From Pseudomonas phage EL: 64,000 bases of DNA. A program made the translations under genes and the position numbers. The notes under the pieces were generated by a model. The model searched no databases. It saw only the letters and a list, made by a program, of their open reading frames with translations, and was not told the DNA's origin. The DNA is taken from sequence record AJ697969.1. The stretch is one strand, 5' to 3'. Below are positions 9,708-64,000 of this stretch, piece by piece (within the stretch, counting starts at the first letter, position 1; each line of letters starts with the position of its first letter).

Positions 9708-10946
9708 ATGAAAAGCTTTATTGATGTATCAGTAGTAGAAGATGGGGGTAAACAGTTCCTCTTCGGTATTACTGCGAATCAAAAGACAGGACGACCCGAA
9801 GTCGTAGGATATACCGATCCTGATTATTTCAGAGAGGGTGCTGACCGTGTGTTTGAACAGCTTATCCGGGAAGAACAACGAAAGGAAGCGGATATTAAAC
9901 TCCAGTTAGCCTTTATTAAGGTGGTCAAGGAACATCCCGGTAAACAACTGCAACTCACGCTTTGCTACAGCGCAAATGGACCGTCAGCTGGAGAATTTTA
10001 TTGGGTGGAGGATCGGTGTTATACGGCTGACGGAGTGTCCTTCCTATCGAATGCTCCGGTGTGTATCTATCATAAGAACTGTCTGGATGGTACTGCGGCA
10101 GCTTGGGCGGTAAGACGTGCACTCCCCTTGGTTGAATTGGTGGCTATGAGCTATCATGATGATCCGTACGAACTCTTTGGCCCGGGGTTGGAGTATCTAC
10201 AAGGGAGAATGGTCTATTGTGTTGATTTCAGTTTTAAGAAAGCAGTTGTAGAAGCGATTGCTAATTTACCGGATACAGGCTTGTTGATCTTGGATCATCA
10301 CGAGAGTGCTCAACGGGAACTGGGTGAACTCGTCGTTGGTTATTCCGGGAAATCAACGCTGGGTGATCGGGTTGAGATTATCATCGATATGACACGTTCA
10401 GGCGCTAAGTTGACGTACGACTACTTCCACCCTCAACAACCGACGCCTCCGGGTATTCTGGCGGTACAAGATCGGGATCTGTGGAAATGGGGGTACGAAG
10501 GCAGTAAGGAATGGACCGCAGCTGCCTTTGGGTATCCCCTCACCGTTGAGAGTTTCGATAAACTGATTCATCGGGATTACCAAGACGTGGTAGAAGAAGG
10601 TCGTACCGTCCTTCGTAAGCAGGAATTGGATGTCGAGAAACTGCTCCCGAGTGCGCGGCCTTACACGTTGGAGGGGTACAACTGCTTGATTGTTAATGCC
10701 AGTTATTTCCACGCCAGTGATGTAGGGGATAAACTGAAGGGTCGAGACGGTATTGACTTTGTAGTCACTTACATGGATGGTAAGGATAGCCGGATCTTCT
10801 CTCTACGGGGTAAGGATAAAGTGAACCTAGCGGAAGTGGCTGAACGTTTTGGAGGAGGCGGCCACCCTAACGCAGCAGGGTTCACCTTGAGCTTCAACGA
10901 TCCTCGTTTCTCCCAGTCACACCTGTTACTATATTCCGGTACTTAA
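9708..10946 (+). CDS. DHH/DHHA1-family phosphoesterase (RecJ/NrnA-like) with N-terminal extension of about 120 aa
   Basis: DHH motifs YHKNCLDG (motif I), ILDHHES (motif III) and FGGGGHPNAAGF (DHHA1 GGGH). The ATG at 9708 is preferred because of a GGAG RBS. Confidence 0.75.
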   Translation: MKSFIDVSVVEDGGKQFLFGITANQKTGRPEVVGYTDPDYFREGADRVFEQLIREEQRKEADIKLQLAFIKVVKEHPGKQLQLTLCYSANGPSAGEFYWVEDRCYTADGVSFLSNAPVCIYHKNCLDGTAAAWAVRRALPLVELVAMSYHDDPYELFGPGLEYLQGRMVYCVDFSFKKAVVEAIANLPDTGLLILDHHESAQRELGELVVGYSGKSTLGDRVEIIIDMTRSGAKLTYDYFHPQQPTPPGILAVQDRDLWKWGYEGSKEWTAAAFGYPLTVESFDKLIHRDYQDVVEEGRTVLRKQELDVEKLLPSARPYTLEGYNCLIVNASYFHASDVGDKLKGRDGIDFVVTYMDGKDSRIFSLRGKDKVNLAEVAERFGGGGHPNAAGFTLSFNDPRFSQSHLLLYSGT

Positions 10947-11196: not shown

Positions 11197-11622
11197 ATGA
11201 ATAATTACGGGTATGTGGATGTGTCCTTGGTAGGACCTGAAGTAGAGGAAATCTTTGGCTTGCTCTTGGAGTGTGGTATTGCACCGGCTGCGGAGTATAA
11301 CCTGCATTGTACCCTGATGTACGATGAACAGGCAGAAGAACCGCTGGTGAAACTGAATCCTGATGCGAAATTCACCGCCTACGTGACAGGGATTGATGTA
11401 CTGGGAGATGGATTGGTGTTTAACCTTACCAGCAAAGACCTCGCTGATGAACACCGCAGGTTGAAAGACGGTGGATATACCCATTCCTTTGATGCCTTCT
11501 TACCGCACATGTCTGTCACCTATGACTTCGATGAATACGACATGTTGAAAGTGAAGCAAGCTTTCGCAACCTGGGGTGGTCGACAACTCACCTTCAGTAA
11601 AGAATCGTTCGGAACCAAATAA
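11197..11622 (+). CDS. 2H phosphoesterase superfamily protein (LigT-like; candidate Acb1-like cyclic-oligonucleotide phosphodiesterase)
   Basis: Two H-x-T/S-x motifs (LHCTLMY and PHMSVTY) about 65 aa apart in a roughly 141-aa protein, which is the 2H family hallmark. Confidence 0.55.
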   Translation: MNNYGYVDVSLVGPEVEEIFGLLLECGIAPAAEYNLHCTLMYDEQAEEPLVKLNPDAKFTAYVTGIDVLGDGLVFNLTSKDLADEHRRLKDGGYTHSFDAFLPHMSVTYDFDEYDMLKVKQAFATWGGRQLTFSKESFGTK

Positions 11623-11686: not shown

Positions 11687-11708
11687 AAGGAATGAAACAA
11701 ACCTACAT
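11687..11708 (+). promoter_or_regulatory. Conserved phage promoter-like motif, copy 2
   Basis: acaaacCTACATTACCAGGGTG, 77 nt upstream of ATG 11785. Confidence 0.5.
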
Positions 11709-11784
11709 TACCAGGGTGAATAGACAACGGGATTGTTTGCAGGTAAGTGACTTTCCCTTCTAAAGACAGAAAAGGGTTATAAAG

Positions 11785-16706: not shown

Positions 16707-17189
16707 ATGACAATTCGTTTAGACATTCTCCACCGGTTTCATCAGATTGAGGGGATACGGGAGACCATCATCGACTTCTCTACCCGACTGTTCGACTACG
16801 AGTTTGCCTTGTCGGGAATACCCGCCCACCTCAAAGACCAATACGAAGTCCCAAACTCGGCAAACGCTTATGATGAGCTCTTCGCGGATACGGATCTCTG
16901 TATTCTGGCCTTGGATGAGGATACGCCCATCGGGATGCTGCTGTCCGCCTACGAACGCCCCAATGCCATCGAAGTCTTGTTTGTAGAAGAGAAGTACCGG
17001 AATAAGCACGTCGGTAAGGTTCTGGTTGAACAATTCCACCGCATTAAGCTGGGTCATCCGATCTTTGTCACCGTAATGGCGTGGAATCCCTCCGCGCGTC
17101 GCTTCTACGAACGGAATGGTTTTATCTTTAAGGAAGATAGCCAACATGGAGAACAGGCCTTAAAGGGTGTACGTTCTCTCCTGGATTAA
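16707..17189 (+). CDS. GNAT-family N-acetyltransferase
   Basis: VEEKYRNKHVGKVLV acetyl-CoA-binding-like segment and FYERNGF motif. Confidence 0.65.
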   Translation: MTIRLDILHRFHQIEGIRETIIDFSTRLFDYEFALSGIPAHLKDQYEVPNSANAYDELFADTDLCILALDEDTPIGMLLSAYERPNAIEVLFVEEKYRNKHVGKVLVEQFHRIKLGHPIFVTVMAWNPSARRFYERNGFIFKEDSQHGEQALKGVRSLLD

Positions 17190-20364: not shown

Positions 20365-20375
20365 CTAACGACTCG

Positions 20376-20400
20376 CCCTCCTGCCTTATTGGCAGGAGGG
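20376..20400 (+). terminator. Hairpin terminator
   Basis: CCCTCCTGCC-ttatt-GGCAGGAGGG. Confidence 0.55.
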
Positions 20401-20430
20401 TGTATGTCCTTTATTTGTTATGAGGTGGTT

Positions 20431-21098: not shown

Positions 21099-21121
21099 AA
21101 TAAACCTATATTACTCAGGTG
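21099..21121 (+). promoter_or_regulatory. Conserved phage promoter-like motif, copy 4
   Basis: aataaaCCTATATTACTCAGGTG, 37 nt upstream of the chaperonin ATG. Confidence 0.5.
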
Positions 21122-21157
21122 TAATGCAATTAGGTATGGTTTAACAGGAGTACGAAG

Positions 21158-22834
21158 ATGTCTCAAACGCTACTGGTACATGGTAAAGATGCCCAAGGAA
21201 TCATTAAACAGGTCTTGAGTGAGGTGTATGACGCCGTCACTTCGACCATGGGTCCGAATGGTCAGTTGGTGATGATCAAGAATGGGGTCTCCACCAAGAC
21301 CACCAAGGATGGGGTGACGGTAGCCCGTTCCATTCGCTTTGCAGATGAAGCCCATGAATTGGTGAACCGGGTAATTACCGAGCCGGCTACGAAGACCGAT
21401 GAGGAATGCGGGGATGGCACTACCACCACCATCATGCTGACCCATGCGCTCTATCACCTGTTCAAGGACTTCCCAGGTTTCCAACACCACCGGAACATTG
21501 AAGACTTGGTAGAGCGGGTTATCCAACGTTTGGAATCCATGGCGATTCGGGTGGAAGTGGATGACCCTCGGTTGTATCAAGTGGCCCTGACCTCGTCTAA
21601 CCAGGATGAAAAGCTCGCCCGACTGGTTAGTGAGCTCTATGCGAATAACAAAGGGAGTTATCCGGATATTGAACTCAAGGAAGGGGTCAACTTCGAAGAC
21701 CAGATCGAACAAACTACAGGGCGCACTATCCGTATGTTCTACGCGAATCCCTGGTTTGCGAAAGGCCACCAAGGGGGTGTGACAGAATTGACGGGGTTTA
21801 CGGCGTTCGTTATCGATCGTCGGATTGACAAGGAAGACACCCAGAAGTTGATTGATGGGGTGAATCACCTTGTGAAAACTCACAAACAACACCTGGCCCT
21901 TCCCATCCTGCTGATTGCACGAAGTTTCGAAGAAGCCGCTAACTCGACCCTGATGCAATTGAATGCGGCGCACCCAACCCTGGTAGAAGACGGACGTCCT
22001 TGGTTAATCCCGTTGAGTACGCCGGTAGGTGGTGCAATTGGGACCTCTGAACTGCAAGACATCGCGGTCATGCTGAACGCCCCTATGCTCAGTGACGTAG
22101 CGGACCTGACCAAGTTGGATACCCATTCGATCAATGGCCAACACGGCCAACTGGAACTGGGGGGCAATCGGTCTATCCTGAAGAGTACCACACCTAAGGA
22201 TGAAGACCGGATCGAACAACATGCTCGGGGTATTGAGGAACTGTTGGAGGGGTTTAGCCTCAGCGATAAGTTCTCTGTACGCGCCCGGTACAACGAACGG
22301 CGTATTCGGACCCTACGGGGTAAGTTGATCACCATTTCCGTAGGCGGCGAAACCTATTCTGAAGTCAAGGAACGGGTAGACCGGTACGAGGATGTGGTGA
22401 AAGCCATTCGTTCCGCCTTGGAGAACGGCATCCTTCCTGGCGGTGGCGTATCCCTGGTTAAGGCGGTCTTCGGTACGATCAAGGAAGGCCTCGAAGATAA
22501 AGACCAGAGCGCTGAGTTTGCTAAGCGGTATATCAACTCAGGCATTGCCAATGAGTTGATGCGACTGTCCACTATTCAGCATAAGCTGTTGTTCAAGGAC
22601 ACGGCGCTGTATAAGGAAAATGGGAGTTTCCATTTTAATGATGATTGGCTCAATACACCGACCGTCATGAATCTGGCAACTGGTGAGATTGGTACCCCGG
22701 AGGGATTGGGTATTTATGACACCGCGTATGCCTCTATCACTGCGCTGAAAGGCGGACTCCAAACCGCTAAGATCTTGGCCACTACGAAGACACTGATCCT
22801 AGGGGAGAAGTTGTCGGCGGTTAAGGTGCGGTAA
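21158..22834 (+). CDS. groL: GroEL-like chaperonin (Cpn60 family), phage-encoded
   Basis: 558 aa. N-terminal region GPNGQLVMIKNGVSTKTTKDGVTVARSI...DEECGDGTTTT matches the GroEL ATP-binding/equatorial signature (GDGTTT). RBS AGGAG. Confidence 0.85.
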   Translation: MSQTLLVHGKDAQGIIKQVLSEVYDAVTSTMGPNGQLVMIKNGVSTKTTKDGVTVARSIRFADEAHELVNRVITEPATKTDEECGDGTTTTIMLTHALYHLFKDFPGFQHHRNIEDLVERVIQRLESMAIRVEVDDPRLYQVALTSSNQDEKLARLVSELYANNKGSYPDIELKEGVNFEDQIEQTTGRTIRMFYANPWFAKGHQGGVTELTGFTAFVIDRRIDKEDTQKLIDGVNHLVKTHKQHLALPILLIARSFEEAANSTLMQLNAAHPTLVEDGRPWLIPLSTPVGGAIGTSELQDIAVMLNAPMLSDVADLTKLDTHSINGQHGQLELGGNRSILKSTTPKDEDRIEQHARGIEELLEGFSLSDKFSVRARYNERRIRTLRGKLITISVGGETYSEVKERVDRYEDVVKAIRSALENGILPGGGVSLVKAVFGTIKEGLEDKDQSAEFAKRYINSGIANELMRLSTIQHKLLFKDTALYKENGSFHFNDDWLNTPTVMNLATGEIGTPEGLGIYDTAYASITALKGGLQTAKILATTKTLILGEKLSAVKVR

Positions 22835-22844
22835 GGGGTTTGTA

Positions 22845-22885
22845 AAGGAGTAGGGGGAAGACCCCTACTCCTTTATTTTTTTTTT
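22845..22885 (+). terminator. Strong rho-independent terminator
   Basis: AAGGAGTAGGGGG-aaga-CCCCTACTCCTT followed by T12 run. Confidence 0.8.
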
Positions 22886-22996
22886 AAGGAAATCGATGGA
22901 TGACGAAGCATTTGAAGGAGGTAGACATCCTATGCAGTGAGTCTTGTAACTTCTTTTGACTTACTCCCATTGGACCACCTTTAAGAGGATAAAGCA

Positions 22997-26915: not shown

Positions 26916-27416
26916 ATGAAAGGTACCCTACCCCATTACCAGATCAGAATTATCGCTAGAAGTGCCTTTACAGACGATTTAAAGGAGAGACTCAAACCAC
27001 TGTATGAAAACCTCTTTCACCACGAACTCCATCTCGTCATTGGTACTAAAACAACCCGTAAGCTGTTTAAACCCTCCGCCCGTAAAAATCCCCACCCCTC
27101 CGTTATTGAGAAACGGTACGAAGACTTCTTCAAAGTAACCGACAAGATAGTACTCGTTACTCACTTGGGAGAAGCCGTGGGATATCTGGCGGTGGTTAAG
27201 AACAAGATCACCTCACTCTTTGTTGAAGAAGACTTCCGGAAGCTAGGCTTAGGGCGGATCATGGTGTCCAAGTTACAACGGGGTGGACATCCTGTGAACC
27301 GGTTCCTCTACGTTCAATGCTTTACCCAGAATACAGCTGGTATCAACTTCTACCGGAAAGTTGGGTTTAAGGAAATTGACAGAGGAGAGATCTACACGGT
27401 TTTGTTAATGGAATAA
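26916..27416 (+). CDS. GNAT-family N-acetyltransferase
   Basis: RKLGLGRIMV (RxxGxG) and FYRKVGF motifs. Confidence 0.65.
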   Translation: MKGTLPHYQIRIIARSAFTDDLKERLKPLYENLFHHELHLVIGTKTTRKLFKPSARKNPHPSVIEKRYEDFFKVTDKIVLVTHLGEAVGYLAVVKNKITSLFVEEDFRKLGLGRIMVSKLQRGGHPVNRFLYVQCFTQNTAGINFYRKVGFKEIDRGEIYTVLLME

Positions 27417-33854: not shown

Positions 33855-35297
33855 TTAAGGGGTAAAAACAAGATGGGTGTTCAATTGACCCACCCGCACG
33901 GTGGTCGTTTGAGCGACCCCTTTCTTCAACACAATCACGACCCGGAGTTTCAAGGTCTTAGGTGCGCTGGCCAATTCAAGGATTTGGGTATCGAAGATTC
34001 CCGAGAGATCCCCTTGACGCAGAGGGTAATTCAGTTCAGTGTTCTGACCCGAGCGCACAGTTTGGACTTGATCGTTCTGGTAGGTTACTTCCAGTTCCAA
34101 CCCTACTTGCAAGACTGCTTCCGCATCGGTTTGAATCGCCCAACGACCCTGAGCTACCAATTTCATCCCTACGGTCAGGTTTGTAATAGGGAGATCCTGT
34201 TCCATTCCCAGGGTCGGTTGATCACCGGTAGGCGTGCCCGTAAAGGACATTACCTGGTATTCACCCCCCGAAGGGTTGGTTTCCTTGGTAATAGCGACGG
34301 TCAAACCGATCAGTCGATTACCCCCAATACCGGTATTCGAGGCGATCTCAACCGTGGTAATGGTAGCACCTCCCGAATCCCCAGCACTACCATCATTACC
34401 GATCAACAAAGGGTTGGGGTTAATGCTCCCGAAGAAGTGGGCGGTCTCCGGCGGTGTCGTGCTGAACGGGATGTAACTGGTTGGCAAGGTAATGGTATTC
34501 TTGAACAGCTTGCTCACCGCAGTGGCGACATGGTTACCGATGATCTCGGCTCCTTTGGGGCTTGGGTGTACACCGTCCCCCAGCATGCCCGCCAGCGGCT
34601 TATTGACATTACCCGGCTCTACCATGTCATCCCAGGGGTTAACCACGATAACACCCCGTTTAGGCAGCTCAGAGAGCATCCACAGGTGCACTTGGTAATG
34701 AATAGCCAATTGTTCATCACTGAGCCCAATAGCGGCTTGTTCTACCGGGGTTTCAGCGATCACAATGACGGTTTTGCCATTGGCCAGCAATGTGGCGTAA
34801 ATCTCGGAGAGGTTATTGATCGTTTCATTGAACGTCTGGTTACGCAGACGGTCATTCCCCGAACCCAAATGGATAATGACATCGAACTTATCCAAGGAAG
34901 CCAGGAGTTGGGGAAGACGTTGGGCTTGTTGGGAGGTAGTATTCCCATCGACACCGGCGTTCATGGCATCCGGGAAGGCTACGGCTCCCTCGGTCTTCGC
35001 ACTGGTCCAGAAGGCCAGACCAACGTTACCTTTCACGCACTGGTAAGCCCGGCTATCACCGTATACCACGATATTGCGGTTAAACGGCAACCGGTCATTA
35101 CTTACCGCATTGACTTTGGTGGTCAGGGTATTCACTTCTTCTTTCAAATAACGGGTACGAGCGTCCAGCACACGTGCTTGCTTGTTCGCATTGCCGGTGC
35201 CTTCTTCGGTGGCTTCAACCTTGTCATCCGGCATCAGAGCCAGCAAAGGTTCAACCCATCCCGGTTGTTCATTAATCACTACGGGATTGTCAGCCAT
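33855..35297 (-). CDS. Tail fibre/tailspike protein with SGNH/GDSL hydrolase (esterase) domain
   Basis: N-terminal adaptor ANKQARVLDARTRYLKEE. SGNH blocks IVVYGDSRA (GDS), GVDGNTT, IHLGSGND and DGVHPS (DxxH). Confidence 0.7.
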   Translation of the reverse strand: MADNPVVINEQPGWVEPLLALMPDDKVEATEEGTGNANKQARVLDARTRYLKEEVNTLTTKVNAVSNDRLPFNRNIVVYGDSRAYQCVKGNVGLAFWTSAKTEGAVAFPDAMNAGVDGNTTSQQAQRLPQLLASLDKFDVIIHLGSGNDRLRNQTFNETINNLSEIYATLLANGKTVIVIAETPVEQAAIGLSDEQLAIHYQVHLWMLSELPKRGVIVVNPWDDMVEPGNVNKPLAGMLGDGVHPSPKGAEIIGNHVATAVSKLFKNTITLPTSYIPFSTTPPETAHFFGSINPNPLLIGNDGSAGDSGGATITTVEIASNTGIGGNRLIGLTVAITKETNPSGGEYQVMSFTGTPTGDQPTLGMEQDLPITNLTVGMKLVAQGRWAIQTDAEAVLQVGLELEVTYQNDQVQTVRSGQNTELNYPLRQGDLSGIFDTQILELASAPKTLKLRVVIVLKKGVAQTTTVRVGQLNTHLVFTP

Positions 35298-35312
35298 GAG
35301 AATAAGTCCTGT

Positions 35313-35906
35313 TTAATACGTGAGGGTGCCGTCGTAACGGAATTGTCCGTTAAAACGAGGAATGGCGTCGTAATGGCTTTCTACGACAGCGAGAGTACCG
35401 GTAACGGTGTTGGAATCAATGATAGCCTGAGTGAACTCCCCGTCGAGGGTAATTTCATCATCCGTCAAGTCGTAGTAGCATTTGGCTTTGATCAGGGCTT
35501 TAATGTGTTCAGGGTTACGACTCCCTTTGAACACCAATACCGCACCTTCAATGATATCTTCGTCTCGTTTGACTTGGTAAATACCTTCCACCCCCTGGGT
35601 TTGTAAAACGTCCCAATCAACCGGATCAGGGGTTTCCAGCATGGAGACCTTATTCTTCACATAATCCGCTGGGAGGTACCGTTGGTTCTTACCGGTCAGT
35701 TTACCTTCGGAATCGATGTTGACCACCCGAGCAAATTCACCACCTTCTACCTCAACTTTCCTGAGGTCAGAGAGGGTAGTATTGTCCAGGGTGAGTTGTT
35801 CTAATACACTAACAATGTTCGGTTCATCGGAATAACGTTCTTTATTAAAAGCGATGAACCGTTCCAGAAACAGTAGATCGTTTGGAAAGGCCATGGGCGT
35901 GTCCAC
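35313..35906 (-). CDS. Hypothetical protein, paralog B of 22997..23626 (first gene of tail-fibre operon)
   Basis: N-terminus FLERFIAFNKERYSDEP parallels FLDKFVEFNKDRYKDQA. Ordinary codon usage. Confidence 0.55.
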   Translation of the reverse strand: MDTPMAFPNDLLFLERFIAFNKERYSDEPNIVSVLEQLTLDNTTLSDLRKVEVEGGEFARVVNIDSEGKLTGKNQRYLPADYVKNKVSMLETPDPVDWDVLQTQGVEGIYQVKRDEDIIEGAVLVFKGSRNPEHIKALIKAKCYYDLTDDEITLDGEFTQAIIDSNTVTGTLAVVESHYDAIPRFNGQFRYDGTLTY

Positions 35907-36010: not shown

Positions 36011-36032
36011 TCAAACCTACATAATCAGGGTG
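36011..36032 (+). promoter_or_regulatory. Conserved phage promoter-like motif, copy 5
   Basis: tcaaacCTACATAATCAGGGTG, 43 nt upstream of ATG 36075. Confidence 0.5.
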
Positions 36033-36289: not shown

Positions 36290-36520
36290 ATGAGCAACGT
36301 TATCGATATGTTCAGCTGGCGGGACTCGAAGAATAAGCGTTCGAGTCAGTTCTCAGTGCTTCATCGTGAAATCGAAGCACTGTACGTCATTCAGAACCGC
36401 GCGCTTCAGGAGATCGCTTCAGCGGATACGGTCTTGGCGTATGAACAAGCTAAACTCTTCCTGATGGATGTCAGGATTGAAATCTACACCAAGACCATTG
36501 CGTTGAGTCAGTGTATCTAA
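36290..36520 (+). CDS. Small hypothetical protein (76 aa)
   Basis: AGGTGTGAG RBS-like sequence before ATG 36290. Confidence 0.4.
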   Translation: MSNVIDMFSWRDSKNKRSSQFSVLHREIEALYVIQNRALQEIASADTVLAYEQAKLFLMDVRIEIYTKTIALSQCI

Positions 36521-36542
36521 GGACATTTAACGTCCAGTGGTA

Positions 36543-36565
36543 ATCAAGTCTATATTACTTGGGTG
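36543..36565 (+). promoter_or_regulatory. Conserved phage promoter-like motif, copy 6
   Basis: atcaagTCTATATTACTTGGGTG, 42 nt upstream of ATG 36607. Confidence 0.5.
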
Positions 36566-36606: not shown

Positions 36607-37086
36607 ATGGCTAAACAGTCGAACTTCACCATCGCTAACTACAACGCCGTCCTGGAAGCTGTTAAAGCCAACAACGGTTACGTGATCGACACCCACGGTG
36701 GTAGCCGTGGACCTTATCGTGCTGCTGGTATCGCCGCACTGGTGAAGGACGAAAGGGTTACCCCGGTGCTGCTGTGCCATGGTTCCTACTTCTGCCTGAA
36801 CTCGCTGCACAAGGAAGCCGATGGTTCGGTGACCCTCTCCAGCTGGTCGGTCGGTGTTACCATCTTCACCCACCAACACGGTGGGCTGGAAGAAGCGATC
36901 CAAGCCTACAACAAGGAGCAATCCGAGTGGGCGTTGTCGGGTGGTCAACTGATGCATGTACGCATCTTCGACTACACCGACGAAACCGCACCTGTGTTCG
37001 GCGAGCCAGTTGATCTGGCAGGCGAAGTCGTGGGTGCGCTGGCAGCACAAGAGCCGATCGCCAAGGTCGACATCCCTGCTCAATAA
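36607..37086 (+). CDS. Hypothetical protein (GC3-rich, likely highly expressed)
   Basis: 159-aa ORF with strong GC3 bias, preceded by the promoter-like motif. Confidence 0.55.
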   Translation: MAKQSNFTIANYNAVLEAVKANNGYVIDTHGGSRGPYRAAGIAALVKDERVTPVLLCHGSYFCLNSLHKEADGSVTLSSWSVGVTIFTHQHGGLEEAIQAYNKEQSEWALSGGQLMHVRIFDYTDETAPVFGEPVDLAGEVVGALAAQEPIAKVDIPAQ

Positions 37087-37131: not shown

Positions 37132-37539
37132 ATGAGTAATGTAATGCACGTTAGCACCATCGCCGGTCGTACCGCCCTGACGGTGATCACACCCGACGAC
37201 CTGCCGGTTACCAACTGGATGGAAAATGTGCTTGCTGCACAGATCCAGAAAGTGGTTGACGAAGGTAAGGGTTGGCCCAACGACGCCGAGTTCAAGGTGG
37301 AGGTTACCTACCACACTTGGCCACAGGGTTGGGACCGGGAAGTGTACACGCACTTCTTTACCAACCGCGCCGAGCTGGACTCCTACATCAAGGACCAGCA
37401 CGAGTGGGCCCGTTGTGAGGACAACATGGTGAAGATCAAGATCTACAACTGGGACCTCGGTCCGAACTTCATGGAAACTCGTGAGTTCGGTGGTCCTGAG
37501 TTGTGGAACAGCCCTCTGAGCCGTCCTTACTTGACGTAA
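37132..37539 (+). CDS. Hypothetical protein (GC3-rich)
   Basis: 135-aa ORF with AGGAG RBS, followed by a terminator. Confidence 0.55.
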   Translation: MSNVMHVSTIAGRTALTVITPDDLPVTNWMENVLAAQIQKVVDEGKGWPNDAEFKVEVTYHTWPQGWDREVYTHFFTNRAELDSYIKDQHEWARCEDNMVKIKIYNWDLGPNFMETREFGGPELWNSPLSRPYLT

Positions 37540-37593: not shown

Positions 37594-37832
37594 GCTTCAT
37601 TTCCATTTTTATAGTTCACTCAACACAACGAGCAAAGTAATGCCTGACACTAACAACGGTCCTGTGGAAATAAAGATGGAACGTGTGCAGTTCAAAAGAA
37701 TAAAAGTAAGGGGTCTTCGTAAATTCTGGTTACTCATCAAACGCTTACTGAGTAAGGACACCGATTATAAGAACACTTGACGAACGCATGGCTAAGTCAA
37801 TGGAACTAAGGGTAATTAACTTCTAGTTGTAA

Positions 37833-37855
37833 TCAGGTCTATATTACCTTTGTGT
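37833..37855 (+). promoter_or_regulatory. Conserved phage promoter-like motif, copy 7
   Basis: atcaggTCTATATTACCTTTGTG, 52 nt upstream of ATG 37907. Confidence 0.5.
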
Positions 37856-52496: not shown

Positions 52497-52506
52497 CCCC
52501 TTTATT

Positions 52507-52534
52507 AACTGGGTGGGGATCTCCCCACCCAGTT
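52507..52534. terminator. Bidirectional hairpin between convergent genes
   Basis: AACTGGGTGGGGA-tc-TCCCCACCCAGTT. Confidence 0.65.
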
Positions 52535-57701: not shown

Positions 57702-60700
57702 TCAATTCAAACGGACGGTTTTATCGGTTCCCTGATTCACCTGTTTGTCTTGCATCTCCGCCATCCGACCCAGTACCTTGTAGATCTCAGCCAGAATACT
57801 GTTCGTATCCGAACTGTTATCACCCAGTTTACCCAACGAGGCCTTAAGCTCAGCCACCAACGCAGAGTCATCACTACGGGTGGTCGTAAGTGCCTCGGTA
57901 CCCCGAGGGGACTGAGGAACAGGTTCAGACGGCGCAGGCGGAACCGGTTGAGGTGCAGAGGGAGGTGGAGAACCCTCATTAGACCTCGGAGTCGAGATCG
58001 GAACATCCGTAGCCGGGTTACCAAAGGTGGGAGTAGGCGTAGGTGGAACGTTCCGTTGCATCGGTCCTACCACACCACCGCCCAGTCCGGTGGTATCCTG
58101 TCCATTCACGGACTGCCCGCCTTGCACAGCGTTAAGGAACTTGTTCGCTGCTTCAGGGGACTTAAAGGCCGCGTGGATATGCCCGCCCGTACCGAGTGCC
58201 GTTCGACTGCGGTATTCATTGATGACTTGGAATTCCTGAGGGCTTAACCCTGCCCGACGAAGAATATCCGTTACAATGGCAACCGCTTGGTCACTTCCTT
58301 GTGCACCATTCACCAGGGTGAAGTCTAACGCCAGGCCTTTAGGATGAGCGCCTTTAGACCCCTTATTGACGTGGTAGGCGTCATTCAGTGCAGAGAAGTA
58401 CCGGAAACCCGGAACTGTCTGTTGAATGATTTTACCCAGTTCTTCCACAGCAGGGTGGTGTTCACCCCCCGCAATGGCTTCAGGGGATTTCAGGCGCAAT
58501 CCACTGCTACCCGGTGTATTGGTGTTAACGATCATCCCACCGTTATCACCTGACCCGTATTGTCCCCCTCCGCCTCCCATGGTTCCATTCAGGGACGGCA
58601 GACTACCACCCACAACGCCCGGAGCCGGTCTACTGACTTGAGGACGCTGGGGTTCGCTGGGGGCTTCTTGACCGTACAGGTCGGACCCGGTTTGGCTCCC
58701 TAACCCACTCCCAGCCGTTTTATCAGCTGTGGTCAGTTCACCACTTTGTAGTTTCTTCAGGTAATTCAGATAGAGCGCATAGCGCTGAGGCATTTCAGGT
58801 AACGGATTACCTCCATTCAACCCTGTTGCCGCTCTACCGAAGTCACCGGTTTGGCTAATACTTCTCAAGAGCTTAGAGTTCCTGAAGAAGTTCACCGCAA
58901 TGGCTGCCATGACGTTCGGATCGTTACTGGCCAGCTCTGGTCTGTTCTCCAGATCAATACCCAGCTCTTGGCCAACCCTCCGGTAATTAGCGCGACCCGT
59001 CAGCTGAATAAACCCACGCCCTCGGTAACGGTACCCATCACCGGCTTCCCTGTTCCCTAAGGAAGCACCTTTACCCCCACCGTACACGGTATTGGCGATG
59101 GCCACTTCACCGGCTTGTACGAGCGCTCTCGCTTGTTCCATGCTCTTCACTTCCCTGAAGAGTTGAACCAAGCGTTCCGGACTGCTGTACTTCATGTTCT
59201 CAGTGGTCCGGGAATAGCCTGAAGACTCGTAGTTGGTAAGGGCGAGCATTTCAGCGATTTCACGAGGGTCCGTAAAGCCTTGTTTCAGCATCTCACGGAT
59301 GATCAACTGCTCCGCCAACGGCTTAGGAACACTCACCCCTCGATCCGTTCCTTGGTTCGTACGTACACCGGTCATATCCAAATGACTGGTGTCCGAATCA
59401 CCCGTAATAGGCGTGAAACCAAAGGCATTCTCAGGGGTTCTGAACCGACCGTCGCTGCTGTACGTATTCCCAGCGTCTCCGCCAAAGGTACCGTACATCC
59501 CTCCTAGAGCAGAATCTCTCCGAGACCGGAATTGTTCCGGGGTAGAAACATTCGCTTGTTGGTCGGTGAACCCACCCCCTACCCGGTGAGGACTGATCTT
59601 CTCAGCCCAGGTTTGGGCGTTGGTCTTACCCGCTTCCAATTCAGGGTCTTTGAGTTTAGCTTCTACCGACGCTTCCCCCAAGAGGTTCAACATCCTGTCA
59701 ACTTTATCCGACCGTCCGGGAGAGGTTTCCCAGGCGAAGGGTGCTGCTCTCACATTCCACACCGAGATGGTAAAGCCAAAGACGCCATTGACTTGGGTTT
59801 GAGTCAGTTCCTTGGCGATCTCATACCGTGCGGTAGCGGAAAGGGTTCTCCAAACCACACCCGGTAGCCCCCGACGGTATTTCCTCATCAGGGTCATGTA
59901 GTTGGTCAGCACCGGCAGGAACCGATCCCTGAACCACTTGCACCAGGCATCCGCGTACCGATCATCCACCCGGAAGGCGTCCTTGAACCGAGCGAAGAGT
60001 TCACCTATGTTGCCCTTGAACACCATGTCATCCCCTTTCGCCATAAACAGGGATTCACAATGACGTTCCAACTTGAGGACGGCTTCGACTCGCCAGGGGA
60101 CATCCTTATCGTTCCCGTAGGTAGCCACCCGGATAGCGGTAAGCATATCCAAGGCTTTACCATCTGGCATCAGGTCTTGGATATAGATCTGGCCGACAAC
60201 CGCATTGGCGGTATACGCTTTCCCTAACCGATCGATTTCACCTTTAACCTCCTTCAGGCGATCGGTGGCCTCCATCTTCTCCCCGAAGTCTTTCCACTGG
60301 GTACTCCGGTCTTCCAGCTTCCGTTCCAGTTGAACCCGTTCCTTCTGAAGGGACTCCAGACTTTGGCCTTTAACCGTAGAGACGGCAAAGGGATCAATGG
60401 TGGGATCTTTAGCCCCGACATACTTCTTAAGGGCATCCAAGAGGTTACCCACCCGGATGATCGTCATTTGTTGATCAAGGAGAGGAGTCTCTTTGTCAAT
60501 CTTAGCTACGATCTGGTACGGGGAAGGCACCAACCCACTGAGGGCACTGTGGGCTTGTTTGGCCACTTTGTACACGATTAAGTCAGACGAATCGTCATAG
60601 TCCTTCAACGATCGCAGTTTAACCGCATCCAAACAGGCCAGGTAGGTCAAGTAAACGGGTTTGAACCGTCCATTGAACCAGGTAAAGACTTCACCAATTT

Positions 60701-63700
60701 CATTACGGTCTTGAGGATTGCCTACGAAGAGACGAAGGACTTCCTCAATAGGCGCTTGCTTAGACAGCGACGCGCGCCCATTCCCAATCACCACATGGTC
60801 TTTTAGCAGGTTCTCAACGTTGAGGATTTTAGCCGCCAGGGGACCGTGAGGATCTGAGAGACCGTACTGAACCATCCGTAGTTCAATTTGCTTCCCTTTA
60901 CCTGAACCAAACAGGGAATCCCATCCCCATTTAGAAGTCCCCAACATCACCCCAAAGGGACTGTACATCGAAGACCCCAGGGCATCCGTAGTAGGACTCT
61001 TTCCTTTGACCTTTTCCAAAATCCATTTCGCAATGGTCTGTCCACCCAGTAAGCCCGCGGTGGCACCCACTTGTTGGTAAAGACTATTACCGGCTTTACC
61101 CACTTTAAGGATTTGGTCGGTGGTACCGAGTTTCTTCGTTTCTTCGTCAGTAGCGACCTGGTACATTTCGTACGCAGACAATGCACCTGCGCCAATCAAA
61201 CCGGCGCGTCCTGCACCCAGTTTACCCAAGTGTCCGAGTCCACCCAGACCATTCAATAACCCACCGAGTCCACCAGCGACGCCCTTAGCGATAATCGTCA
61301 ACAGTTTAAGTCCCATACGACCGAACTTAAACAATGCACTGAACCCGCTCCAGAGGACCTCAGAACCCAGGAAGCTGGTCAGCCACTCGAAGCCTTTCTT
61401 AACACCCCCTACCAAACTGCTCAGGAGACCGAAGATACCGAACTTCTTCTTCTTACCGAGTTCTTTCTCATCCTTCATACCGAAACCGAAGTTTTCAGCA
61501 ATCGAGATGATGGCGTTCTTAACGGTGTTGTCTTTCTCTTCCTGGAGTTTTTGCGCACGGTCGGCCAGGGAGTTAGCTCGGGTGGCATCATTGGACGACG
61601 CTGACCGACGGAACCGATCGGTGTTGTCCCCTTCCCCCGCTTTTCCTTTAGCGGCTCTAAAGCTCTCCAGGGCGTCTTTAAGCGCTGGATTCTTTTCCAT
61701 AAGGGCTTCGGTAAGGGTAAGATCGTTTCGATCTCCTAGGGACCCTGGAGGGCCTTCTGGGCCATCTTGGGAACCTGGTGCCGGGGGAGTGAAGGGATTG
61801 GGGCTACCATCCGGTGAGTTATACCCCCAATGTTTCAAGAGGAGGTAATAGATCCGATCCACGGAATTGACCACTGGAGAGTGATCCGTACTGAACGGAT
61901 TCTTAACCCGACCCCCCATGCCTTTCGCATACCCACCTGCGCGGTCTTTCAATTTACCGAAGAGGTCCAACCCGAACTGTCCGGCTTGTCTAAGGCCCGC
62001 GCCCAGCTTGTTGATACTGGTCCCCATGGAGGTTTTAAGTCCACGGTCGTATTCTTCAGCCGTGATCAGGGTATTCCCTTCCTTGTCATACACCGGGCCA
62101 TCGATCTCATCCCATCCCTGGAGTTCAACGAACCCGTCTCCACTCCGTTTGAAGTATTGACCTTTACCAAAGCGACTCCCCAGCAAAACCGGTTCGTCTT
62201 CACCTTCAATGTAAATATCCATCCGGTACAGACGGGTACGAGCTTTATCCCAAAACCCTTTAATGCGGTTAACAGGATCCAGCCAGTTAAAGGCTTTCAT
62301 AAAGAGATCCCGAACCTTATTCAGGCCTTTAAGGAATACTTCCTTGTTGTCTTCGGTAAAGAGTTTACCCGCTAAGCGGCTAGCGCCAATAACGGCTCCA
62401 TTGGCCAGGTCTTTAATACTCCCAGTAATCTGATCCCACCCCTGAATGATCTTCCCGGTGAGCATATCCAGATACTCACCCTTAAAGAGTTTAAAGGATT
62501 CAAGGATCGGGGTATCAGACCCTTCTTCGTACAGGTCTTCCGTGTTCTCGGCTCGATGAGCAGCCGCTCGGGCACGCAACTTGTTATATGCCATCCCTAG
62601 CGCCAAGCCACCTCCTACCAATGCAGCACCTTTCGGGTTGTAGATCGCCATACCCGCCAATCCACCCAGTAAGCCACCCAGTACCAACGGTTGGTTATCC
62701 AGGAGTTTGTCTATTCCCTTATTAAACAGATCCCCAAACGACGTACTCTTAATCCGTTCCAGAATACTCCGTTTTTGTTGCTGGAGGGTTTCTTCAGCTT
62801 CAGGAGTGGGTTTCTCGTAGGGTTGACGTTCCAAGATCTTGGTGAGGATATCGTTCCGGTTCCCTCCCAGTTCTACCAGTTTACCCAGCAGGCTGTTCCC
62901 TTGAGTCACCTGGTCGTTCAGAGCGGTGAACATCGAAGACGGATCCGTAAGACCCGAACGACTTACACCTCCCTGTTCAATATGTGCCCCGAGTTTATCC
63001 AAAGTTTCCCGTACACCCTGAAGGGTTTCATTCAACTGAGCGTTCTCAGCTGCAATCATACCTCCGGAGTCTCGACGCCCTCTTCCCCGTCTGCCAAAGG
63101 AACGGGTCTTACGCACCGCTTCTTCCAGAGGGTTGTCATACACCATAGCACGGTCAGGGTTATCAATGAAGGACTGGAGGACGTTCCGGAAGGTGTCCAT
63201 ATTGACTTCATCGTGGCCATTTTCAGACTTGATGATGCCAGCTTCTTTCATGACGTTGTAATACCCAGACGAACGCAGCATATCGACGCGCTCGGCAATG
63301 TCCGGCATAAACCGACCCAGGAGGTTGGATTGTTCCGTTAACTTGGCGGCGCGTTCTCGGGCTTGTTCTGTAGGAAGACGAGCAATAGCGCTCGCCCGGT
63401 CCAGGGTACTGCCCTCCTTAAAGGCCGTAAAGGCTTCCGGGGTAATATCAAAATTCCGTTGGAACAATTCCCGGATTTCATCCGCTACCTGACGGTTTAC
63501 CCCTTTGGTCTCCAAGTTCATGTACAGGTACGGACTGAACCCTTTCCGTTTATCCGCATTCTGAACCAGTTGCATCGCCAATACACGGCGGGCTTCGTTG
63601 GACAATTCCTTATTGGGGTCAATGGAATCCACCAATCGAAGGGACGTATCCGCTTGGGACTTGAATTGGTCTTTATCCATTACCCGGTTAAAGGTATCCG

Positions 63701-64000
63701 CTACCTTTTGGTTATGGCTGACCAACTTACCCCGTACGTAGTCATAACTCGACGCTTTAAGGGTATCATCCCCCGTACGGATCTTTTCAATCGACAAGTG
63801 AATGTGGCTGAGCAGTTCGGGGATCACTTCATTCAGGGTACGGGAGGACTGTTTGTTCCAGATCTCCGGTTCGTGGGCATCCATTAACCCCCGACGTTTT
63901 AGGCTGTAACGACTCCCGGTGGGTTGGTACAACTCATCCAACAACCCCGCCATGCCTTTATTCGCCCCTTTCTTCAGGGTATTAATAACCGTCCATTCCA
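57702..64000 (-). CDS. Giant virion-associated protein (at least 2083 aa; tape-measure-like) with GH19-type muramidase and M15/LAS-like peptidase domains. Probably 5'-partial
   Basis: The minus-strand frame remains open past the track start (63953) to the window edge. Gly-rich hydrophobic zippers (GGLLGGLAGMAIYN..., AGGLGGLLNGLGGLGHLGKLG...). GH19-like motif GDGYRYRGRGFIQLTGRANY (about nt 58990-59040). Peptidase-like SKGAHPKGLALDF...GGHIHA (about nt 58150-58360). Confidence 0.75.
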   Translation of the reverse strand, partial: EWTVINTLKKGANKGMAGLLDELYQPTGSRYSLKRRGLMDAHEPEIWNKQSSRTLNEVIPELLSHIHLSIEKIRTGDDTLKASSYDYVRGKLVSHNQKVADTFNRVMDKDQFKSQADTSLRLVDSIDPNKELSNEARRVLAMQLVQNADKRKGFSPYLYMNLETKGVNRQVADEIRELFQRNFDITPEAFTAFKEGSTLDRASAIARLPTEQARERAAKLTEQSNLLGRFMPDIAERVDMLRSSGYYNVMKEAGIIKSENGHDEVNMDTFRNVLQSFIDNPDRAMVYDNPLEEAVRKTRSFGRRGRGRRDSGGMIAAENAQLNETLQGVRETLDKLGAHIEQGGVSRSGLTDPSSMFTALNDQVTQGNSLLGKLVELGGNRNDILTKILERQPYEKPTPEAEETLQQQKRSILERIKSTSFGDLFNKGIDKLLDNQPLVLGGLLGGLAGMAIYNPKGAALVGGGLALGMAYNKLRARAAAHRAENTEDLYEEGSDTPILESFKLFKGEYLDMLTGKIIQGWDQITGSIKDLANGAVIGASRLAGKLFTEDNKEVFLKGLNKVRDLFMKAFNWLDPVNRIKGFWDKARTRLYRMDIYIEGEDEPVLLGSRFGKGQYFKRSGDGFVELQGWDEIDGPVYDKEGNTLITAEEYDRGLKTSMGTSINKLGAGLRQAGQFGLDLFGKLKDRAGGYAKGMGGRVKNPFSTDHSPVVNSVDRIYYLLLKHWGYNSPDGSPNPFTPPAPGSQDGPEGPPGSLGDRNDLTLTEALMEKNPALKDALESFRAAKGKAGEGDNTDRFRRSASSNDATRANSLADRAQKLQEEKDNTVKNAIISIAENFGFGMKDEKELGKKKKFGIFGLLSSLVGGVKKGFEWLTSFLGSEVLWSGFSALFKFGRMGLKLLTIIAKGVAGGLGGLLNGLGGLGHLGKLGAGRAGLIGAGALSAYEMYQVATDEETKKLGTTDQILKVGKAGNSLYQQVGATAGLLGGQTIAKWILEKVKGKSPTTDALGSSMYSPFGVMLGTSKWGWDSLFGSGKGKQIELRMVQYGLSDPHGPLAAKILNVENLLKDHVVIGNGRASLSKQAPIEEVLRLFVGNPQDRNEIGEVFTWFNGRFKPVYLTYLACLDAVKLRSLKDYDDSSDLIVYKVAKQAHSALSGLVPSPYQIVAKIDKETPLLDQQMTIIRVGNLLDALKKYVGAKDPTIDPFAVSTVKGQSLESLQKERVQLERKLEDRSTQWKDFGEKMEATDRLKEVKGEIDRLGKAYTANAVVGQIYIQDLMPDGKALDMLTAIRVATYGNDKDVPWRVEAVLKLERHCESLFMAKGDDMVFKGNIGELFARFKDAFRVDDRYADAWCKWFRDRFLPVLTNYMTLMRKYRRGLPGVVWRTLSATARYEIAKELTQTQVNGVFGFTISVWNVRAAPFAWETSPGRSDKVDRMLNLLGEASVEAKLKDPELEAGKTNAQTWAEKISPHRVGGGFTDQQANVSTPEQFRSRRDSALGGMYGTFGGDAGNTYSSDGRFRTPENAFGFTPITGDSDTSHLDMTGVRTNQGTDRGVSVPKPLAEQLIIREMLKQGFTDPREIAEMLALTNYESSGYSRTTENMKYSSPERLVQLFREVKSMEQARALVQAGEVAIANTVYGGGKGASLGNREAGDGYRYRGRGFIQLTGRANYRRVGQELGIDLENRPELASNDPNVMAAIAVNFFRNSKLLRSISQTGDFGRAATGLNGGNPLPEMPQRYALYLNYLKKLQSGELTTADKTAGSGLGSQTGSDLYGQEAPSEPQRPQVSRPAPGVVGGSLPSLNGTMGGGGGQYGSGDNGGMIVNTNTPGSSGLRLKSPEAIAGGEHHPAVEELGKIIQQTVPGFRYFSALNDAYHVNKGSKGAHPKGLALDFTLVNGAQGSDQAVAIVTDILRRAGLSPQEFQVINEYRSRTALGTGGHIHAAFKSPEAANKFLNAVQGGQSVNGQDTTGLGGGVVGPMQRNVPPTPTPTFGNPATDVPISTPRSNEGSPPPSAPQPVPPAPSEPVPQSPRGTEALTTTRSDDSALVAELKASLGKLGDNSSDTNSILAEIYKVLGRMAEMQDKQVNQGTDKTVRLN

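Follow-up and report, generated by a model that had tools for sequence, protein, structure and literature searches.

We examined a 64,000-nucleotide (nt) stretch of the genome of Pseudomonas phage EL (sequence record AJ697969.1; the whole stretch is hereafter called the window), in which gene 146 encodes a GroEL-like chaperonin, gp146, of 558 amino acids (aa). The gene occupies positions 21158..22834 of the plus strand, stop codon included, and starts with ATG in the list of open reading frames (ORFs). An initial annotation, made from the letters alone, had called a full-length phage-encoded chaperonin at exactly these coordinates, and the strings KDGVTVARSI and DEECGDGTTTT that it named are both present in the translation. 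Pfam analysis placed gp146 in the Cpn60_TCP1 superfamily (PF00118; E=8e-27, 94.5 bits with a cut-off of 34.3), and the protein falls in PHROG 5725, 'chaperonin groEL' (E=1.8e-170). A search of structure sequences retrieved 109 solved chaperonin sequences, and 558/558 residues were identical to PDB 6TMT, 6TMU, 6TMV, 6TMW, and 6TMX, all entitled 'Putative GroEL-like chaperonine protein'. The same sequence is deposited as CAG27240.1, YP_418179.1, and UniProt Q2Z0T5 under the name 'chaperonin groEL [Pseudomonas phage EL]'. The comparison proposed at the outset, with EL gp146 and with bacterial GroEL, thus gave complete identity to the former and 24% identity to E. coli GroEL (BLASTP, 552 columns, E=7e-36). 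Judged by this match, the ORF is gp146 of phage EL itself and not just a gp146-like protein, and no evidence against the identity was found. The ORF is not new: gp146, the earliest-described phage chaperonin, was annotated in 2005, characterized biochemically in 2012, and studied structurally in 2016–2020; the protein has been obtained in pure form and assayed, and its structure is known from crystallography and cryo-electron microscopy (cryo-EM). What is new here is a genome-wide negative result for GroES at the sequence level and statistical support for the upstream motif CTAYATTACNNNGGTG. We hold with high confidence that the locus is best explained as EL gene 146, a one-gene unit encoding a distant GroEL homolog that works without a GroES-type lid.

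A promoter-like motif, a ribosome-binding site, and a terminator accompany gene 146. The motif, CTATATTACTCAGGTG, a member of the CTAYATTACNNNGGTG family, lies at 21106..21121 (+), 52 nt 5' of the ATG, and a Shine-Dalgarno sequence, AGGAG, was read at 21146..21150 (+), 7 nt 5' of the ATG. An intrinsic terminator, consisting of a 15-bp stem, a 5-nt loop, and a T-run, begins 8 nt past the stop codon (22842..22886, +; stem 22842-22876). Its RNA fold has a free energy of -26.7 kcal/mol, compared with -15.6 +/- 2.8 kcal/mol for shuffled sequences (z=-4.0), and none of the 200 shuffles was as stable, bearing out the early call of a strong terminator. With the motif on one side and the terminator on the other, gene 146 is a self-contained one-gene unit.

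The occurrence of the motif was compared with shuffled sequence. The octamer TATATTAC is present in three copies in the window, all in plus-strand intergenic gaps, where 1.2 copies are expected; 12 of 100 shuffles reach three, and the count is not significant. The longer motif, CTAYATTACNNNGGTG with up to two mismatches, has eight matches in the window with 2.4 expected, a number reached in 0 of 100 shuffles. Six of the eight are intergenic, on the plus strand, and 35-82 nt before a plus-strand ATG, in a window of which intergenic DNA makes up 6.5%. These copies, located by pattern search, lie at 11703-11718, 21106-21121, 36017-36032, 36550-36565, 37839-37854, and, more weakly, 52500-52515, and the five other than that of gene 146 each precede a plus-strand gene of unknown function. 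The initial annotation was right to see a promoter-like motif before the chaperonin gene, but its numbering as 'copy 4' did not hold, for it is the second plus-strand copy by the definition used here. In the complete genome of phage MIZ-Pa99, the closest relative of EL, CTAYATTACNNNGGTG with up to one mismatch occurs seven times, in all seven cases intergenic and on the plus strand, and shuffled genomes contain 0-1 copies. The CTAYATTACNNNGGTG motif is a real, rare, and positioned element that a phage RNA polymerase would use as a promoter. A promoter scan detected no sigma-70-like site 5' of gene 146, which fits transcription by a phage polymerase as negative evidence only. The motif appears to resemble the early-promoter consensus of phage phiKZ. 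For phiKZ, 32 early promoters are reported (PMC10914365), far more than the seven copies of CTAYATTACNNNGGTG in MIZ-Pa99, so that CTAYATTACNNNGGTG may represent a special promoter class. The early consensus of Bacillus phage AR9, AAATATATATTAT-(6N)-G, shares only an ATATTA core with it. Two of the copies, at ~36505-36565 and ~37795-37855 (+), lie within ~60 nt of extended similarity (agtca.tg.a.ctaagg..atttaac.tc.agt.gtaatca.gtcTATATTAC) that resembles a duplicated upstream region, and the adjoining ORFs 36607-37086 and 37132-37539 are weak paralogs.

In pairwise alignment with E. coli GroEL, gp146 appears as a distant homolog that has kept the ATP pocket. Domain borders were carried over through this alignment from the GroEL limits, reportedly those of Braig et al. 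1994, and are approximate. The N-terminal part of the equatorial (ATPase) domain covers ~aa 1-127 (21158..21538, +) and holds T30, G32-P33, K50-D51-G52, and G85-D86-G87-T88-T89-T90; a first intermediate-domain segment would follow at ~aa 128-186 (21539..21715, +), then the apical domain at ~aa 187-390 (21716..22327, +), and finally the second intermediate segment with the C-terminal equatorial part at ~aa 391-558 (22328..22831, +), which holds D412 (GroEL D398), G428-G430, and D521 (GroEL D495). Twenty of the 25 GroEL nucleotide-pocket positions are identical in gp146, including all of T30, G32-P33, K51-D52-G53, G86-D87-G88-T89-T90-T91, D398, G414-G416, and D495. The apical groove formed by helices H and I, which in GroEL binds substrate and GroES, is partly conserved: gp146 Y195, W199, and F200 align with GroEL Y199, Y203, and F204, so that Y199 and F204 are kept and Y203 is replaced by W; this change and those of L234 to I and L237 to V are conservative, and L259 is replaced by N and V263/V264 by M/L. 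In the same alignment gp146 lacks the allosteric salt bridges D83-K327 and R197-E386 of GroEL, having E82/G336 and M193/Y400 at these positions, and it does not conserve K105, R452, and E461, through which the GroEL rings make contact. The C-terminus, ...GEKLSAVKVR, carries no GGM repeats. These differences in the groove, salt bridges, and inter-ring residues agree with the published structure, in which the helix H/I groove is narrowed and remodelled, the rings make 1:1 contacts, and salt bridges are lost (PMC7185714).

Compared with the two classical groups of chaperonins, gp146 shows mixed features. It shares with E. coli GroEL the three-domain Cpn60 fold, seven-membered rings, and the ATP pocket GDGTTT/D52/D398/D495 (PMC7185714). 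However, GroEL has staggered 1:2 contacts and uses GroES, whereas gp146 has 1:1 contacts, does not use GroES, and undergoes stable ring separation with ATP; unlike group I chaperonins in general, it has neither GroES dependence, nor the GGM tail, nor the D83-K327 and R197-E386 salt bridges. Group II chaperonins (thermosome/CCT) match only the N-terminal ~150 residues of gp146 (E 1e-5 to 1e-15), and they carry a helical apical protrusion as a built-in lid and have 8-9 subunits per ring, whereas gp146 is reported to be lid-less and seven-membered.

Relatives of gp146 are found in phages of several hosts. The EL-like phages MIZ-Pa99, HHBS47_1, phiRU, IR-QUMS-PaBa1, and others share 97-98.5% DNA identity and gene order with EL; the chaperonins of MIZ-Pa99 and HHBS47_1 are 98.7-99.1% identical to gp146, with few substitutions, and in some EL-like phage records the gene is labelled just 'hypothetical protein'. 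Outside the EL group, the nearest relatives are gp192 of Erwinia phage Joad (40% identity) and gp205 of Klebsiella phage Miami (35%), both aligning over >95% of the length and both from jumbo phages. The best non-self solved relative is gp246 of phage OBP (PDB 6HDD; E=1.4e-51), which is GroES-independent like gp146 and has asymmetric apical domains, but forms only a single-ring heptamer of 515-residue chains (PMC9598537). The chaperonin gp228 of Bacillus phage AR9 is also phage-encoded and co-chaperonin independent, but is a single-ring heptamer and much more divergent (PMC9598537), with 20% identity by tblastn. In total, tblastn at E<=1e-5 found relatives of gp146 in 259 of 50,697 phage records, mainly phages of Vibrio, Flavobacterium, Aeromonas, and Cellulophaga; with ~60 kb, a number of these are not jumbo phages. 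The initial description of phage Cpn60 proteins as rare is fair for cultured phages, but a few jumbo phages are no longer their only carriers. In marine viromes, chaperonins of viruses were common according to Marine et al. 2017, with ~40% of the GroEL contigs also carrying GroES (PMC5649160).

To examine whether a co-chaperonin is encoded alongside gp146, we relied on sequence-level searches, which a lid without detectable similarity to GroES or to gp31 of phage T4 would escape. No Cpn10/GroES protein was found among 44 small ORFs of the window using Pfam (down to E ~0.17) and PHROGs, and a six-frame search of the window by phmmer and with a small profile of E. coli GroES, P. aeruginosa GroES, and T4 gp31 gave best E values of 2.4 or worse. 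The earlier remark that no GroES-like ORF adjoins the gene is thus in line with Pfam, PHROGs, and HMMER alike, and the suggestion to look for a co-chaperonin in the rest of the genome was followed in MIZ-Pa99, which is complete and 98% identical. There, a six-frame search of the whole genome with the same queries returned no co-chaperonin (best E 0.5-1.2), Pfam analysis of 53 further small ORFs gave 15 families at E<=0.1 without Cpn10 among them, and the deposited annotation of 240 coding sequences (CDS) names no co-chaperonin. As judged from this relative, a GroES-like gene is absent genome-wide at the level of sequence similarity.

The chaperonin genes of Joad and Miami are each followed directly by an ORF of ~86 aa (Joad gp193, 86 aa; Miami gp206, 85 aa), and EL gp144, two genes 5' of gene 146, also has 86 aa. 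A conserved small ORF acting as a hidden co-chaperonin was considered and rejected, as phmmer found gp144, gp193, and gp206 to be mutually unrelated and none of them to resemble any frame of the window. The chaperonin neighborhoods of Joad and Miami share only the chaperonin and thymidylate/thymidine kinase, and both, with their thymidylate synthase and kinase genes and their non-conserved small 3' ORFs, differ from that of EL. A single-sequence AlphaFold2 model of gp144 had a mean predicted local distance difference test score of 55.5 and a predicted template modelling score of 0.39, too low for fold comparison. There is a slim chance that gp146 works with an unrecognized partner or dedicated client, and that CTAYATTACNNNGGTG, which in the window precedes gene 146 and five genes of unknown function, marks a small co-regulated set to which it belongs.

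The biochemical work of Bracher et al. 2020 provides the frame for a mechanism (PMC7185714). In that study gp146 hydrolysed ATP and prevented aggregation of rhodanese in a strictly nucleotide-dependent manner, rhodanese was not refolded, and E. coli GroES did not interact with gp146 (PMC7185714). The tetradecamer, composed of two seven-membered rings in 1:1 contact, came apart into single rings when ATP was present and the salt concentration physiological, and the cavity was open in all crystal and cryo-EM states, with no built-in lid (PMC7185714). On the basis of these findings, the authors proposed a bind-and-release mode without encapsulation (PMC7185714). That gp146 works without a GroES partner, as the initial annotation had it, is agreed in PMC7185714, PMC9598537, and PMC5934643. 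We likewise regard bind-and-release without encapsulation as the most likely mode, with moderate confidence. The published experiments, made with exactly this sequence, show that gp146 binds non-native proteins in a nucleotide-dependent manner, protects them from aggregation, and lets them go after hydrolysis, that its double ring splits into single ones on binding ATP at physiological salt, and that no GroES-type lid takes part. During infection, gp146 would act as the chaperone of at least one phage protein.

Several points weigh against this account. The mechanism is disputed, with Molugu et al. 2016, as represented in PMC5934643, reporting a closed, substrate-encapsulating ring. The natural client is also disputed, association with the endolysin gp188 having been both reported and denied (PMC3821690). 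A structurally novel co-factor unrelated to GroES or gp31 may escape sequence searches, and Bracher et al. leave the same possibility open (PMC7185714). Lastly, the promoter role proposed for CTAYATTACNNNGGTG is deduced from sequence and position.

The proposal of Molugu et al. 2016 is that ATP hydrolysis splits gp146 into closed, expanded single rings, shut in iris fashion by their apical domains, which encapsulate and fold large clients without a lid. This draws on low-resolution electron microscopy maps (EMD-6492 to 6494) and on refolding of the 116-kDa beta-galactosidase, in the form in which these are summarized in PMC5934643, and ring separation itself has been confirmed (PMC7185714). 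However, neither the two crystal forms nor cryo-EM of gp146 in the apo, ADP, and ATPgammaS states showed a closed spherical heptamer, no built-in lid element is present, and rhodanese, whose refolding depends on encapsulation, was not refolded (PMC7185714). We consider encapsulation possible but doubtful. Alternatively, gp146 could act as a timed holdase, keeping gp188 (or a different late protein) inactive until the ATP level drops at a late stage of infection and then releasing it in a concerted manner, as speculated in the discussion of PMC7185714. The ATP dependence of substrate binding would suit such a role (PMC7185714), as would the work of Kurochkina et al. 2012, to which PMC7185714 and PMC9598537 refer and in which gp146 came through purification together with gp188 and protected it from aggregation. 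By contrast, gp188 was reported to fold and to be fully active without the chaperonin, with no binding to gp146 in gel filtration (PMC3821690), and the gp188 homolog in MIZ-Pa99 is not genetically linked to the chaperonin gene, lying ~9 kb past the window's 3' end; a holdase role is unlikely.

It is highly improbable that gp146 uses a lid after all, be it host GroES or an unrecognized phage co-factor unlike GroES and gp31 in sequence. The idea has a precedent in the ~40% of viral GroEL contigs accompanied by GroES in the virome mentioned above (PMC5649160), but sequence searches of the window and of the entire MIZ-Pa99 genome turned up neither Cpn10 nor gp31 signals, E. coli GroES does not interact with gp146 (PMC7185714), and the small 3' ORFs of Joad and Miami, related neither to each other nor to ORFs of the window, offer no conserved adjacent partner. 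In addition, the groove that binds GroES is narrowed (PMC7185714), and L259, V263, and V264 are not conserved. The case that the initial annotation had named as its own refutation, a bacterial groEL with flanking bacterial genes at a prophage/host junction, has no support and is excluded, given the 24% identity to E. coli GroEL, a phage protein (OBP, 6HDD) as the best non-self solved relative, a window containing no groES, tRNA gene, or Rfam family, DNA matches that are all to ~210-kb Pseudomonas jumbo phages, and collinearity of the whole window with these lytic phages. For the locus as a whole, the preferred reading is still that of a lid-independent phage chaperonin.

The surroundings of gene 146 are those of a jumbo phage. 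Six of the eight other window proteins checked matched EL records exactly (gp144, gp145, gp147, gp173/UvsX, the virion structural protein CAG27249.1, and CAG27220.1, 'RNA ligase'/Acb1), and gene 146 together with the first 25 kb of the window is 97-98.5% identical at the DNA level to seven ~210-kb P. aeruginosa phages; the EL genome itself has 211,215 bp (PMC3821690). The annotation of MIZ-Pa99 includes a nuclear shell protein, PhuZ, multiple split RNA polymerase beta-type subunits, a tail sheath, a major head protein, and one 'chaperonin groEL'. By this gene content, the phage is assigned to the phiKZ-like, nucleus-forming jumbo phages; the initial annotation had surmised a phiKZ/EL-like jumbo phage. 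Phages that form a nucleus are reported to keep out CRISPR-Cas systems that target DNA. The taxonomy line of the MIZ-Pa99 record (PV472050.1) reads Pantevenvirales; Straboviridae, despite the shell, PhuZ, and split RNA polymerase genes and the ~98% identity to EL, and is probably mis-assigned.

Close to the chaperonin gene, gp144, gp145, gp147, and the next ORFs have no match in Pfam, and the PHROGs they match are of unknown function; in addition, gp147 weakly matches a family of virion structural proteins. A 12-bp GC-rich hairpin (9 GC pairs; 20374-20402, +), followed by TATGTCC and no T-run, comes immediately after the stop codon of gp144. This stem-loop, CCCTCCTGCC-TTATT-GGCAGGAGGG, bears a loose resemblance to the terminator motif conserved in phiKZ (PMC10914365), and it overlaps an alternative TTG start of gp145 at 20389. 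Two paralogous GNAT acetyltransferases, encoded ~10 kb apart at 16707-17189 (+) and 26916-27416 (+), flank the chaperonin region.

Further away, the 141-aa ORF 11197-11622 (+), CAG27220.1, matches Pfam Acb1, an anti-CBASS 2H phosphodiesterase (43.5 bits with a cut-off of 27), and is named 'RNA ligase' in GenBank and Acb1 in UniProt. Directly 5' of it, 9708-10946 (+) encodes a DHHA1-domain phosphoesterase, so that two nucleotide-cleaving enzymes adjoin. Among the minus-strand virion and structural genes, 33858-35312 (-) has a 485-aa product that belongs to the GDSL lipase/acylhydrolase family (Pfam Lipase_GDSL_2, 7e-14); the overlapping plus-strand ORF 33873-35606, preferred by a longest-ORF rule, was rejected as spurious. 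The giant lytic tail protein pointed out in the initial annotation corresponds to ORF 57702-63953 (-), which has at least 2083 aa, is open to the window end, and contains a Glyco_hydro_19 (lysozyme-like) segment at residues 1638-1690; its product is probably a virion-associated peptidoglycan hydrolase. In the MIZ-Pa99 record, two CDS labelled 'tail fiber protein' take up the corresponding region. Beyond the window, MIZ-Pa99 200039-200917 encodes a 292-aa 'hypothetical protein' with a PG_binding_1 match (1.4e-6) and the same length as the EL lysin gp188, probably an unannotated endolysin homologous to gp188.

The locus shows the characters of an EL-type viral chaperonin, namely a sequence identical to the founder, no GroES- or gp31-like gene found at the sequence level, and a jumbo phage genome. 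gp146 is the prototype of the lid-less viral chaperonins, which mix features of groups I and II, and these proteins may stand for a chaperonin mechanism that needs no encapsulation and is possibly ancestral.

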